Below the pieces are notes generated by a model. It saw only the letters and a list, made by a program, of their open reading frames with translations, did no database searches and was not told the DNA's origin. This document shows, in pieces, positions 33,679-36,530 of a DNA stretch of 64,000 nt. The stretch is taken from the NCBI GenBank assembly GCA_963665665.1, contig OY762428.1:1856001-1920000 (forward strand), written 5' to 3'. The first letter of the stretch is position 1; every line of letters begins with the position of its first letter. The translations under genes and the position numbers were made by a program. The DNA comes from Candidatus Kapaibacterium sp. Lineage in GTDB: Bacteria > Bacteroidota > Ignavibacteria > Kapaibacteriales > UBA2268.

Positions 33679-34803
33679 TTAATCGTTTAAGAAATTTATA
33701 AATTCCCTGAGTGAACTTTGCAGTACTTCCCTGGGAATTAGTTCCCGTTCGTATTTTGCTATCATGGTCGGGCTCATACTACGGTTCAACGCGTATTTTA
33801 CAACCTCCCTGTTTGTTTCTTTGCAAAGCAGTATGCCAATCGAAGGATTTTCGTTGCTGCGTTTAACATCATTATCGAGAGCTTCGAGATAAAATTCCAG
33901 CTGCCCCATAAATGCAGGCTCGAATTCATCTGTTTTCAATTCTAAGGCCACCAGGCAATGCAAAGCCCTGTGAAAAAACAATAAATCAATTTTAAATGTT
34001 TTGCTGCCTACCTGAACCGGATATTCCTGCCCCACAAACAGAAAATCTTTGCCAAGTTCAAGTACAAAATCCTTCATGTTTTCCAGGATACTTTTTTGCA
34101 GACGTTTTTCGCTGTGTTTTTGCGGGAGTCCTAAAAAATCAAGATAAGCAACATCCTTGAACATATAATTCGAGCCGGGGTATTTTTTTTGCATTCCGGC
34201 AGACTGAATATTTTCAGATTTTATTATATGGTTATATGTATTGGTTTTAATAGCTCGCCTTAGCTCTTTTACCTCGAGCCGCTCATGATTTGCATACAGG
34301 ATATAGAACAGGCGTTCTCCGTTTGTCCGGCAGCAGTTCAGAATTTCCACATGGCTTGTCCAGTTAATTTTGCCAAGAATAGACGGGAAATTCTCAGGCT
34401 TATAAATTTGTGCAGTTTCAAACTGCACAATTTCACCGGGCTTATTATCATCAGATTCTATTTGTGCAGTTTCCGGCTGCACAATTGCGGCTTTGTATTT
34501 CGTATTGCCGGCCAATTCAATAAATTCATGCGAGGAATAGGTATCGAAAAAACGAACCATATTGTAAATATTACGGCGGCTATAGCCTTTAAGCCCGGGG
34601 TCTTTAGTTCGCAGGTATTCCGACAGTTCCGTAACCACTTTGCTGCCCCATTCACTGCTTTGCAGTTTTGTAGAAACATATTGACCGACGTTCCAGCATA
34701 TAAGCAGGCTTTCGTCGTTTACTGTTTTCAAAGCCCGCGACCGGTGTAGATTAATTATACCGCGGATATGCTCGAAACGGCTGTCTCTTTTATCTGATTT
34801 CAT
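33679..34803 (-). CDS. YhcG/DUF1016 family PD-(D/E)XK nuclease
   Basis: WGSKVV..LS..L, YSRRNI, LELGKDF.FVG.EY, IDLLFFHR, ELK, GQL.FYL and IGILLC motifs. Confidence 0.92.
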   Translation of the reverse strand: MKSDKRDSRFEHIRGIINLHRSRALKTVNDESLLICWNVGQYVSTKLQSSEWGSKVVTELSEYLRTKDPGLKGYSRRNIYNMVRFFDTYSSHEFIELAGNTKYKAAIVQPETAQIESDDNKPGEIVQFETAQIYKPENFPSILGKINWTSHVEILNCCRTNGERLFYILYANHERLEVKELRRAIKTNTYNHIIKSENIQSAGMQKKYPGSNYMFKDVAYLDFLGLPQKHSEKRLQKSILENMKDFVLELGKDFLFVGQEYPVQVGSKTFKIDLLFFHRALHCLVALELKTDEFEPAFMGQLEFYLEALDNDVKRSNENPSIGILLCKETNREVVKYALNRSMSPTMIAKYERELIPREVLQSSLREFINFLND

Positions 34804-35265: not shown

Positions 35266-35298
35266 AAGCCTTTGTAAAATATTTATTTACAAAGGCTT
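35266..35298. terminator. Inverted repeat just downstream of the CCA-bearing tRNA 3' copy
   Basis: AAGCCTTTGTAAA-N7-TTTACAAAGGCTT. Confidence 0.6.
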
Positions 35299-35308
35299 TT
35301 ATTTTATC

Positions 35309-35388
35309 TGGCGGAGAAGGTGGGATTCGAACCCACGATAGCGCTTAACACACTATGTCCCGATTGCATCGGGATGCCTTCAGCCACT
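35309..35388 (-). pseudogene. tRNA-Ser 3' fragment (D-loop to CCA) with substituted anticodon arm
   Basis: Identical to the tRNA from AGTGGCTGAAGGCA to TCTCCG except for the 17-nt ASL (35358-35374); ends in CCA. Confidence 0.88.
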
Positions 35389-35625
35389 ATTTATCAGTTC
35401 CTTAATATAACTTCTACTTTTCATTTTTTTGATTTTTAATTCATATACCACCGCTTCTGAGCGGCTTTCAAACATCTTTGAATAAACTAATTTCCATGGA
35501 CGGTATGGCTTTGTTGATTTTACAGAGCCGGAATTATGTTTCTCGACCCTTTGCTCAATATTTTCAGTCGATCCAACATAGTAACGGCCTGTACTCAGGC
35601 TTTGTAGTATATAAGTGTAAAACAT
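35380..35625 (-). CDS. Small standalone GIY-YIG nuclease, copy 1 (UPF0213/SLX1-like)
   Basis: YTYIL...YYVGST...R..HN.G...T..YRPWKLVY...A...E..IKK motif pattern. Confidence 0.9.
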   Translation of the reverse strand: MFYTYILQSLSTGRYYVGSTENIEQRVEKHNSGSVKSTKPYRPWKLVYSKMFESRSEAVVYELKIKKMKSRSYIKELINSG

Positions 35626-35646
35626 TGAAAATCCTCACCATATATG

Positions 35647-35672
35647 AAAAAAGGGAACCTGTAGTTCCCTTT
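35647..35672 (-). terminator. Intrinsic terminator between the tRNA 3' copy and GIY-YIG copy 1
   Basis: Minus strand reads AAAGGGAAC-TACAG-GTTCCCTTTTTT. Confidence 0.7.
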
Positions 35673-35678
35673 ATCCTG

Positions 35679-35755
35679 CGGAGAAGGTGGGATTCGAACC
35701 CACGATAGCGCTTAACACACTATGTCCCGATTGCATCGGGATGCCTTCAGCCACT
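35679..35755 (-). pseudogene. tRNA-Ser 3' fragment with substituted anticodon arm (no CCA)
   Basis: Same as 35312-35388; hairpin at 35725-35741. Confidence 0.88.
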
Positions 35756-35992
35756 ATTTATCAGTTCCTTAATATAACTTCTACTTTTCATTTTTTTGAT
35801 TTTTAATTCATATACCACCGCTTCTGAGCGGCTTTCAAACATCTTTGAATAAACTAATTTCCATGGACGGTATGGCTTTGTTGATTTTACAGAGCCGGAA
35901 TTATGTTTCTCGACCCTTTGCTCAATATTTTCAGTCGATCCAACATAGTAACGGCCTGTACTCAGGCTTTGTAGTATATAAGTGTAAAACAT
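35747..35992 (-). CDS. Small standalone GIY-YIG nuclease, copy 2
   Basis: Same 81-aa protein as copy 1. Confidence 0.9.
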   Translation of the reverse strand: MFYTYILQSLSTGRYYVGSTENIEQRVEKHNSGSVKSTKPYRPWKLVYSKMFESRSEAVVYELKIKKMKSRSYIKELINSG

Positions 35993-36013
35993 TGAAAATC
36001 CTCACCATATATG

Positions 36014-36039
36014 AAAAAAGGGAACCTGTAGTTCCCTTT
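36014..36039 (-). terminator. Intrinsic terminator directly after the intact tRNA-Ser
   Basis: Same hairpin and U-tract as 35647-35672. Confidence 0.7.
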
Positions 36040-36045
36040 ATCCTG

Positions 36046-36135
36046 CGGAGAAGGTGGGATTCGAACCCACGATAGCGCTTAACACACTATGCTGGTTTAG
36101 CAAACCAGTGCCTTCAGCCACTCGGCCACCTCTCC
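36046..36135 (-). tRNA. tRNA-Ser(GCT), intact; CCA not encoded
   Basis: GGAGAGG acceptor, TGGCCGAGTGGCTGAAGGC D-arm, CTGGT-TTGCTAA-ACCAG anticodon arm, long variable arm, GGTTCGAATCC T-loop and G discriminator. Confidence 0.95.
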
Positions 36136-36471
36136 GTTTTTCAAATTTTTATCGCCAAGTGTTTTTTTCACTATGTCCCGATTGCATCGGGATGCCTTCA
36201 GCCACTCGGCCACCTCTCCGTTTTTCAAATTTTTATCGCCAAGTGTTTTTTTCACTATGTCCCGATTGCATCGGGATGCCTTCAGCCACTCGGCCACCTC
36301 TCCGTTTTTCAAATTTTTATCGCCAAGTGTTTTTTTCACTATGTCCCGATTGCATCGGGATGCCTTCAGCCACTCGGCCACCTCTCCGTTTTTCAAATTT
36401 TTATCGCCAAGTGTTTTTTTCACTATGTCCCGATTGCATCGGGATGCCTTCAGCCACTCGGCCACCTCTCC
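36136..36471 (-). repeat. Four 84-bp tandem units, each a tRNA-Ser 5' part (51 nt, substituted anticodon arm) plus a constant 33-nt linker
   Basis: tRNA-derived blocks at 36169, 36253, 36337 and 36421 are in register with the intact tRNA (36085). Confidence 0.93.
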
Positions 36472-36501
36472 GTTCTGACTGATTGTATCAATCAGAGAGT
36501 A

Positions 36502-36530
36502 CAAATATACAACTAATTTATAATTTCAAA
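36502..36530 (-). promoter_or_regulatory. Probable tRNA-locus promoter (TTTG...TATATTTG)
   Basis: TAnnTTTG at 36502-36509, 30 nt upstream of the first 5' copy. The spacing to TTTG (17 nt) is slightly short. Confidence 0.55.

Follow-up and report, generated by a model that had tools for sequence, protein, structure and literature searches.

A tRNA-Ser(GCT) gene flanked by partial copies of itself in a GIY-YIG nuclease cassette with a conserved palindromic hairpin

Within a 64,000-nucleotide stretch of the Candidatus Kapaibacterium sp. genome (assembly GCA_963665665.1, contig OY762428.1, positions 1,856,001 to 1,920,000, referred to as a whole as the window), a single tRNA-Ser(GCT) gene is located between non-functional partial copies of itself, and the entire arrangement is part of a tRNA-linked cassette that encodes a GIY-YIG nuclease (Table 1). 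Read in the tRNA sense, the locus starts with a promoter-like box, which is followed by four 84-bp units, the intact tRNA gene, two 367-bp units and a different terminator. Each 367-bp unit (2.1 copies with 99% matches according to Tandem Repeats Finder) contains a terminator hairpin, an 81-aa open reading frame (ORF) and a partial tRNA copy with a hairpin, and the last three codons of the ORF (Ser-Gly-stop) are taken from the tRNA D-loop (nt 14–22). The intact gene is the only GCT serine tRNA gene among the tRNA calls of the genome. As for the promoter-like box, TAnnTTTG is the -7 consensus of Bacteroidetes; at the locus, the motif is no more frequent than by chance (6 found and 5.05 expected), but in three other genera TATATTTGTA precedes the first tRNA-like start by a similar distance.

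Table 1. Features of the tRNA-Ser(GCT) locus, in window coordinates and in the order of the tRNA sense
Feature	Position	Strand	Basis or remark
Promoter-like TATATTTG box	36502–36509	-	some 30 nt ahead of the outermost 84-bp unit rather than immediately before the functional tRNA
Four identical 84-bp 5'-type units	36136–36471	-	Tandem Repeats Finder: period 84, 4.4 copies, 100% matches over 36109–36474
Limits of the 84-bp units	36136–36219, 36220–36303, 36304–36387, 36388–36471	-	hairpins at 36176, 36260, 36344, 36428
Content of each 84-bp unit			tRNA-Ser nt 1–27, 17-nt hairpin for nt 28–44, nt 45–51, 33-nt spacer
Functional tRNA-Ser(GCT)	36045–36135	-	native arm 36092–36108; ARAGORN; Rfam tRNA 59.7 bits
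367-bp units	35678–36044, 35311–35677		Tandem Repeats Finder
Intrinsic terminator hairpin AAAGGGAAC..GTTCCCTTT and T run	36017–36039	-	between the tRNA and nuclease copy 1
GIY-YIG nuclease ORF, copy 1 (81 aa)	35747–35992	-	ORF list; Pfam PF01541
3'-type partial tRNA, copy 1	35678–35755	-	nt 14–27, hairpin 35725–35741, nt 45–91
Second copy of the intrinsic terminator	35650–35672		
GIY-YIG nuclease ORF, copy 2	35380–35625	-	protein identical to copy 1 (tblastn, 100% for both)
3'-type partial tRNA, copy 2	35311–35388	-	nt 14–27, hairpin 35358–35374, nt 45–91
Outer terminator hairpin	35266–35298	-	behind the last partial copy

The feature shared by all partial copies is a 17-nt hairpin, TCCCGATGCAATCGGGA, in the place of the native anticodon arm CTGGTTTGCTAAACCAG. 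A pattern search returned six matches in the window, all on the minus (tRNA) strand and all at the positions reported by an initial annotation of this DNA; 0.03 matches are expected by chance, none of 100 shuffles reached six, and a scan of the whole genome (5,458,198 bases) yielded the same six and no others. The substitution is length-neutral, with 17 nt replacing tRNA nt 28–44, and in all six copies the adjoining flanks are kept, with AGTGGCTGAAGGCA directly before (5') and CATAGTG directly after (3') the hairpin. The exchange had been described as one with unchanged flanks and the same length, which holds for the 17 nt and their immediate surroundings; beyond these the tRNA is incomplete in every copy. 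The four copies between 36176 and 36444 resume the tRNA only up to nt 51 before running into the 33-nt spacer, and lack the variable arm, the T arm and the 3' acceptor strand. In the two copies behind the nuclease genes, the 5' side is the end of the ORF. None of the six hairpins thus sits in a complete tRNA. The RNA fold predicted for TCCCGATGCAATCGGGA is a 7-bp stem with a GCA triloop (-8.5 kcal/mol, as compared with -5.6 for the native arm), which is one of the two folds initially put forward; the other, with a 7-nt anticodon loop, is not the predicted one.

Two further observations concern the 84-bp array. In its predicted RNA fold, the CACTTGGC stretch of the 33-nt spacer forms pairs with GCCGAGTG, a D-arm segment in the following unit (36137–36168 with 36206–36214, repeated per unit). 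The long repetitive ORFs of 101–142 aa at 36054–36482 (+), 36097–36504 (-) and 36173–36478 (+) are artefacts of the array.

The same tRNA-Ser(GCT) site is occupied in other genera. In genome G011, the tRNA gene is followed by two nuclease units whose partial tRNA copies bear TCCCGATTGCTATCGGGA (18 nt). Genome G023 also has two nuclease units; here, the anticodon arm is replaced by TCCCGATTGTAAATCGGGA and the T arm by TCCCGAACTCGTTCGGGA. Genome G005 possesses one upstream unit with TCCCGATGGCTATCGGGA, which is cut off at the same tRNA position as the units of the window, and its spacer has a CTTGGC motif in common with the 33-nt spacer. The hairpin stems are identical in the four genera, and the loops and spacers vary, with TGCT, GGCT or TGTAA as the loops outside the window. 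The flanks of the partial copies match the tRNA of their own genome in each case, though the G011 nuclease is just 52% identical to that of the window. An assembly artefact can be rejected, as the genome is a single contig and the layout recurs in independent assemblies, in four genera at tRNA-Ser(GCT) and at 80 other loci.

These data bear directly on one of the readings offered by the initial annotation, according to which the copies may be chimeric tRNAs with a GCA anticodon on a serine tRNA body, either miscoding Cys codons as Ser or acting as decoys for an anticodon nuclease. In favour of a chimera that accepts serine and reads UGC codons, seryl-tRNA synthetase disregards the anticodon, and ARAGORN labels two stretches (35309–35401 and 35678–35768) as tRNA-Cys(gca). 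In both calls, three of the seven acceptor positions are unpaired and the D stem is broken, because the 5' strand of each is the end of a nuclease ORF. Each copy is a fragment, four of them holding nt 1–51 and two nt 14–91, and both acceptor strands occur together in none. The Rfam tRNA model does not report any of the partial copies, the sole match being to tRNA-Sec with 21.2 bits against a gathering score of 47. With a broken cloverleaf, a predicted triloop instead of a 7-nt anticodon loop, and a loop that differs at the same site between genera, a miscoding tRNA finds no support here, and a decoy would require the native anticodon arm, which is precisely the part that has been replaced. We therefore consider the chimeric reading, in either form, extremely improbable. 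As the stems are the same and the loops different across the four genera, the GCA of the window is one of several loop sequences; it marks the centre of a palindrome common to the family and decodes nothing.

The source of the hairpin among resident tRNAs was also considered. The anticodon arm of the genuine tRNA-Cys, GCGGTCTGCAAAACCGC, folds as a GCGGT/ACCGC stem with a CTGCAAA loop and has only GCA in common with the 17-mer; the arms are unrelated, which excludes a derivation from tRNA-Cys. A derivation from any other resident tRNA arm was likewise rejected: a CCCGA..TCGGG stem is present in none of the 50 genuine tRNA calls of the Kapaibacterium genome (G000).

To place the locus in its family, relatives of the nuclease were collected in a scan with one genome per species, which returned 269 proteins, and 80 of their loci, picked via a C-terminal peptide motif and belonging mostly to Flavobacterium, were examined. 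The layout of the window is the standard one for this family, typically comprising a short repeat array, a functional tRNA, a terminator, the GIY-YIG gene and a partial tRNA with a TCCCGA..TCGGGA hairpin. A tRNA gene is present on the same strand within 300 bp upstream of the nuclease gene in 65 of the 80 loci (the available upstream flank is at least 130 bp in 74 loci and shorter in six), and no upstream tRNA was found at 13. Ten tRNA species are represented among the linked genes: Ala-GGC (37), Met (9), Asp (6), Ser-GGA (4), Leu-TAA (3), Pro-CGG (3), Arg-TCT (2), Ser-GCT, Val and Lys (1 each). Two or three nuclease copies are arranged in tandem at 14 loci.

To find partial tRNA copies, the last 22 nt of the local tRNA served as the query of a homology search, which does not presuppose a hairpin. 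A partial tRNA 3' end was found behind 51 of 81 nuclease copies; 46 of these contain a strict CCCGA-N(2-14)-TCGGG hairpin, four contain it with at most one mismatch per arm, and one has a degenerate form. The 17-mer represents, in the window, a conserved palindromic hairpin that is widespread in Bacteroidota; this hairpin, H in the following, replaces a native stem-loop in each of the partial copies there. Among 62 cases in which H could be placed, it occupies the anticodon arm in 49, the T arm in nine and another position in four. This placement of one hairpin across ten tRNA species upholds in spirit the initial view that the swap is too precise for drift, and partly supports the accompanying idea of hairpin-for-hairpin substitution. 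In 30 of the 62 placed cases H starts exactly 6 nt past the stop codon of the nuclease gene, a distance that results from the stop codon being the TAG or TGA of the tRNA D-loop.

H units are also found upstream of the tRNA, in 40 of 67 loci and with a maximum of six in a row. An element bounded by two H copies and inserted into an anticodon arm together with a spare tRNA was considered and dropped, as the other 27 loci have no upstream H and G005 has an upstream unit only. When the spacers between tRNA and nuclease gene were folded (n=64), a terminator hairpin was predicted in nearly all of them, with the ORF starting from a few to about 25 nt further on, which leaves little space for a separate nuclease promoter.

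One locus with tRNA-Arg(TCT), L098, contains three near full-length tRNA-like copies (1883–1955, 2342–2419 and 2469–2541) in which the anticodon stem is CCCGA/TCGGG and the loop TTTCTAA is kept. ARAGORN reports all three as tRNA-Arg, and Rfam scores only one of them, with 33.5 bits. These copies possibly represent a less decayed state.

The consensus derived from 142 distinct hairpins is T-CCCGA-T, 2–5 nt, A-TCGGG-A, with T at position -1 in 128 of them, A at position +1 in 125 and a complementary inner pair in 135; the spacer separating the 5-nt arms is mostly 4–7 nt long. With 17 occurrences, the perfect palindrome TCCCGATGCATCGGGA is the most frequent form, and the 17-mer of the window is this palindrome with one extra base. 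Compensated stem variants occur (TTCCGA..TCGGAA and CCCCGA..TCGGGG), and single mismatches that would indicate a G-U preference on one strand, inspected by eye, are few and go in both directions. Rfam searches at E ≤ 1 for the locus and at E ≤ 0.01 for eight related loci returned only tRNA and sub-threshold noise, and no known RNA family.

The conserved stem with its variable loops and compensated variants would also be expected if H acted in RNA. According to this explanation, which resembles a type III toxin-antitoxin system or an autoregulatory circuit, the H copies of the nuclease mRNA (at its 3' end) and of the leader array of the pre-tRNA would bind or titrate the nuclease, or stabilise and process the transcript, with the tRNA pieces as a scaffold. 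The order of promoter, tandem array, tRNA, terminator and a small nuclease ORF without room for a promoter is reminiscent of ToxIN, a stretch of two 84-nt units gives a good fold (z -5.95), and near full-length tRNA-like copies carry H at the anticodon position in L052 and L098. Against a role of this kind, GIY-YIG enzymes are, to our knowledge, DNases, the units of the window have neither T arm nor 3' acceptor strand and so are not processable as tRNA scaffolds, H is a palindrome scattered over both strands, and 27 of the 67 loci have no upstream H. We regard an RNA-level function as unlikely.

H is not confined to tRNA genes. The pattern TCCCGA-N(2-14)-TCGGGA occurs 55 times in G000, as compared with five occurrences of the reversed control, and in five other genomes 56, 32, 19, 38 and 116 times, with 0–2 for the control. 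Six of the 55 hairpins are those of the Ser locus, six are located behind tRNA-Ala(TGC), and most others belong to a dispersed GC-rich composite repeat. This occurrence of the stem with variable loops, at 43 sites outside tRNA loci, counts against the recoding proposed in the initial annotation, by the refuting condition set there. Among 18 H places sampled in the other genomes, 15 had no tRNA call and were mostly dispersed single copies with differing flanks; two of the places without a tRNA are cassette remnants, one being a nuclease-ORF remnant with two hairpins and the other a partial tRNA with a hairpin. In both rRNA operons of G000, tRNA-Ala(TGC) is accompanied by tandem 41-bp H units, two at 2679069–2679150 and four at 3515055–3515218, each consisting of a 5-nt spacer, tRNA nt ~39–48, TCCCGATTCATCGGGA substituting for the T arm, and the 3' acceptor strand. 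Neither array adjoins a nuclease gene.

The composite repeat of G000, ...GGCGAGCGCAGCGAGT TCCCGACACGTCGGGA CAGGCTGGGGTGG..., combines several hairpin modules in a genome of 38.6% GC, and about 29 copies could be aligned (e.g., at 92611, 155630, 624828, 1351263 and 5346970), none of them in the window. The hairpins of G005 are chiefly of the TCCCGAC type found in this composite repeat. In the Flavobacterium genome G044, the perfect 18-bp palindrome TCCCGATAGCTATCGGGA is present in dozens of single copies at unrelated intergenic sites (e.g., L113–L120) with the recurring one-sided flanks GCGTGAAA and GTGGCAA; at L118 it is nested within a longer inverted repeat, AACCGCAA..TTGCGGTT. Right after the partial tRNA of the Flavobacterium locus L057, a segment of about 100 bp (~2376–2466) has many matches on both strands in several Flavobacterium genomes and looks like a separate palindromic dispersed repeat. 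Two other roles of H were rejected by reasoning: copy numbers are too low for a DNA-uptake sequence, and the identical 18-mers are too uniform for operators.

Across 41 Flavobacterium genomes, the number of H copies correlates with the number of nuclease family members (Spearman 0.63, and 0.57 with genome size removed), a correlation that is partly built in through the one or two H copies per cassette and is drawn from related, non-independent genomes. The median is 33 H copies in the 27 genomes with a nuclease match and 9.5 in the 14 without.

Another explanation would be a passive origin, in which slippage or unequal crossing-over copies tRNA pieces, H is a generic, very stable hairpin (terminator or REP-like) that drifts into them, and the nuclease is an unrelated neighbour. 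Consistent with this, CCCGA/TCGGG also serves as the terminator stem after some tRNAs (L030, L038, L061, L098), H arrays are found without a nuclease gene in cis (the tRNA-Ala arrays and G005), and some H-rich genomes have no detected nuclease. A by-product of this kind would hardly account for H in 50 of the 51 partial copies behind a nuclease gene, for the exact 6-nt distance from the stop codon in nearly half of the placed cases, or for stems that are invariant across genera amid diverged surroundings, nor for the correlation with nuclease counts and the like substitution in ten tRNA species. We consider this explanation distinctly improbable.

The 81-aa product has a clear match to the GIY-YIG domain (PF01541, E 8.5e-18, 64.9 bits against a cut-off of 22.6), and a Pfam search yielded GIY-YIG and T5orf172 only. 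In an alignment of 23 sequences, Y5, Y16, G18, R26, H30, E62 and K66 are invariant and N31 is conserved in at least 90%; presumably, the Y5, Y16, R26, H30 and E62 columns correspond to the GIY-YIG catalytic residues. The gene is intact and constrained: 91 of 97 ORFs are at least 72 aa long, and the median ratio of nonsynonymous to synonymous substitution rates (dN/dS) is 0.07 over 140 pairs of the Ala-linked clade. To judge by its sequence, the nuclease looks active. The AlphaFold2 model (predicted local distance difference test score, pLDDT, 94.2) consists of strands 2–9, 15–20 and 44–52 and helices 23–32, 55–67 and 71–80. A sequence search of the PDB returned the UPF0213 proteins BH0048 (1zg2, 1.2e-15) and 1ywl (4.5e-13) and SLX1 (4.7e-10), with a marginal match to I-TevI (1.3e-3, residues 4–36).

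Further assignments of the protein were rejected. NCBIfam yielded just a sub-threshold match to the group I intron endonuclease family TIGR01453 (20 bits against a cut-off of 56), and thus no named protein family. PADLOC gave no significant match to a known defence system (best E 0.0089). A phage origin was dropped, as none of the 122 pattern hits in viral_contigs was confirmed and phage records contributed 11 distant matches with less than 45% identity.

Empty and occupied alleles of one site are found within a single genus. At the tRNA-Ala(GGC) locus of Flavobacterium, G046 and G053 are empty and have the order promoter, tRNA, terminator, flank. The occupied alleles (L057 and G060) have the order promoter, 5' partial copy with a hairpin, intact tRNA, new terminator, nuclease gene, 3' partial copy with one or two hairpins, original terminator, flank. 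G057 possesses the upstream unit and no nuclease gene. Because the tRNA terminator of the empty allele is found behind the last partial copy when the site is occupied, the outer terminator of the window is probably the original terminator of the tRNA-Ser gene. On a tree of 81 nucleases, the tRNA label changes 23 times, as compared with a mean of 43.6 for shuffled labels (none of 200 shuffles was as low), a count inflated by relatedness and taken from a tree with few columns and many open forks. The Asp-linked nuclease copies are near-identical between an Ignavibacteriales and a Bacteroidota genome, and the arrays themselves change rapidly in copy number, with two and four 41-bp H units in the two rRNA operons of G000.

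Empty and occupied alleles, together with nuclease clades that follow the tRNA type, are also what a classical homing endonuclease would produce. In that case, the enzyme cuts the native anticodon arm or T loop, and H is a cleavage-resistant allele that protects the duplicated homology arms; in line with this, H replaces symmetric, conserved arms (the anticodon and T arms in 49 and nine of the 62 placed cases), and the cut site of the phage GIY-YIG endonuclease SegB is a T-loop motif in tRNA genes (PMC13096335). Homing is difficult to reconcile with the functional tRNA of each occupied locus, which retains its native arms and so stays a target, and with the use of one resistant sequence across ten tRNA species, which is more than immunity requires. 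The protein has only 81 aa and no specificity domain, its matches to I-TevI and TIGR01453 are the weak ones given above, and H is dispersed at non-tRNA sites too. We hold a homing origin to be improbable.

The explanation that we favour is as follows. The probable start of transcription lies ahead of the outermost 84-bp unit, from where it would cross the four units and the tRNA; the transcript may then leak past the terminator into the nuclease ORF, which terminates within the next partial copy. H would be the cognate cis-element of the nuclease family, a hairpin or cruciform site, in the same way as repetitive extragenic palindromic (REP) sequences relate to REP-associated tyrosine transposases (RAYT). 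Nicks or breaks introduced by the nuclease at or near the tRNA gene could stimulate recombination among tRNA-homologous segments, which would carry the cassette into the corresponding tRNA gene of further genomes, with the conserved tRNA as the homology arm, and would lengthen or shorten the tandem arrays. As one intact tRNA must survive selection, H would be confined to redundant pieces. A precedent for part of this scheme is SegB, which cleaves within tRNA genes and through this activity causes a recombination-dependent amplification, in tandem, of the tRNA-plus-segB segment (PMC13096335). That a cognate structured palindrome, break-stimulated recombination of the SegB type and selection for one working tRNA act jointly is, in our judgement, a proposition evenly balanced between right and wrong. 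A more far-reaching version is put forward tentatively and with limited confidence: the cassette may be a Bacteroidota counterpart of REP/RAYT, in which a minimal SLX1/YhbQ-type GIY-YIG protein maintains and mobilises a 16–19-bp palindrome, TCCCGAT..ATCGGGA. The palindrome would then overwrite stem-loops hairpin for hairpin, chiefly the anticodon and T arms of redundant tRNA copies, giving rise to both the tRNA-flanking arrays and the dozens of dispersed copies per genome.

A number of observations weigh against the favoured explanation. It provides no mechanism for the replacement of a like-sized arm, as distinct from an insertion, and a nuclease cutting the functional tRNA gene itself would be costly. 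The protein is the catalytic core alone, without a DNA-binding domain (longer fused forms were not searched for), which weakens the case for a sequence-specific recognition of H. The low dN/dS looks more like that of a useful host gene than that of a purely selfish one. No partial tRNA end is detectable downstream of 30 of the 81 nuclease copies, and 15 of the 80 loci lack a tRNA within 300 bp upstream. Besides being partly built in, the link between H and nuclease counts is loose: G005 (81% complete) has 79 H copies and no detected nuclease gene, G057 has 68 and no nuclease match at E ≤ 1e-10, and G011 possesses the nuclease with only four H copies.

Each of the known systems compared with the cassette shares some of its features and fails at least one defining feature. 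Free-standing SegB of phages T4 and T6 likewise has a GIY-YIG domain and adjoins tRNA genes of many isotypes in a tRNA cluster (PMC13096335). It is a phage protein, the C-terminal part of which is missing in 'SegB-short', whereas the cassette protein is an 81-aa chromosomal catalytic core from the UPF0213/SLX1 branch, and the available text of the SegB report describes no conserved palindrome that overwrites tRNA arms (PMC13096335). In tRNA-associated islands and prophages of the integrase type, an intact tRNA is similarly accompanied by a partial direct-repeat copy at the far end, and serial events can produce tandems (PMC9897764). Unlike these, the 367-bp unit contains no integrase or any gene other than the 81-aa ORF, its partial copy bears a foreign hairpin, and there are additional partial copies on the 5' side.

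REP/RAYT systems resemble the cassette in having short palindromic hairpin repeats, with tens to about 100 copies per genome, and a single-domain nuclease gene that is flanked by repeats, evolves under purifying selection and is tied to repeat abundance. The enzymes differ, RAYT being of the HUH/Y1 type and the cassette enzyme a GIY-YIG protein (RAYT genes were not searched for in these genomes). Neither a replacement of tRNA arms by REPs nor a tie of REPs to tRNA genes is known to us. H carries neither a GTAG nor a CGTC tag, and CCCGA has no match in the available text of a general REP/RAYT description (PMC3733652).

The cassette also shares tandem structured repeats, a leaky terminator and a small nuclease gene with ToxIN, in which a short structured repeat array is followed by a leaky terminator and the nuclease gene. 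The differences are a GIY-YIG protein instead of a ToxN/AbiQ-type RNase, a functional tRNA within the unit and the lack of an upstream array at 27 of 67 loci. Finally, no solved structures match the sequence better than those of UPF0213 (YhbQ/YazA) and eukaryotic SLX1. The latter is a structure-selective nuclease, and YhbQ and YazA are named as members of its family in a review (PMC7017083). The cassette protein differs from SLX1 in having neither a PHD/zinc-finger tail nor a Slx4 partner. For YhbQ or YazA, neither a tRNA linkage nor a cognate palindrome is known to us, and a literature search, filled largely with unrelated matches, brought up nothing of relevance.

Taken from these comparisons, the arrangement appears to be a variant of a tRNA-associated GIY-YIG element and is apparently undescribed. 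A full-text literature search, which did not reach subscription journals and supplements, found no description of it, and a prior one may exist. If the favoured explanation is true, it would provide a function and a cis-site for orphan stand-alone GIY-YIG (UPF0213-like) proteins, which are annotated merely as 'GIY-YIG nuclease family protein'. It would also point to a sequence that spreads by swapping similar-sized hairpins, which known transposition or homing schemes do not explain, and would extend the SegB-type reshaping of tRNA gene copy number from phages to chromosomes across a phylum. The pieces are of practical concern as well, as tRNA finders take them for genes (in ARAGORN, two false 'tRNA-Cys' in the window and three tRNA-Arg in L098), which can lead to errors in the gene counts of Bacteroidota and in what is deduced on their codon usage. 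The empty and occupied alleles within one genus offer a ready experimental system.

About 500 bp past the locus, the window contains a gene for a YhcG-type PDDEXK nuclease at 33679–34803 (-), with a PF06250 match (E 2.9e-52) and a DUF1016 N-terminal domain.

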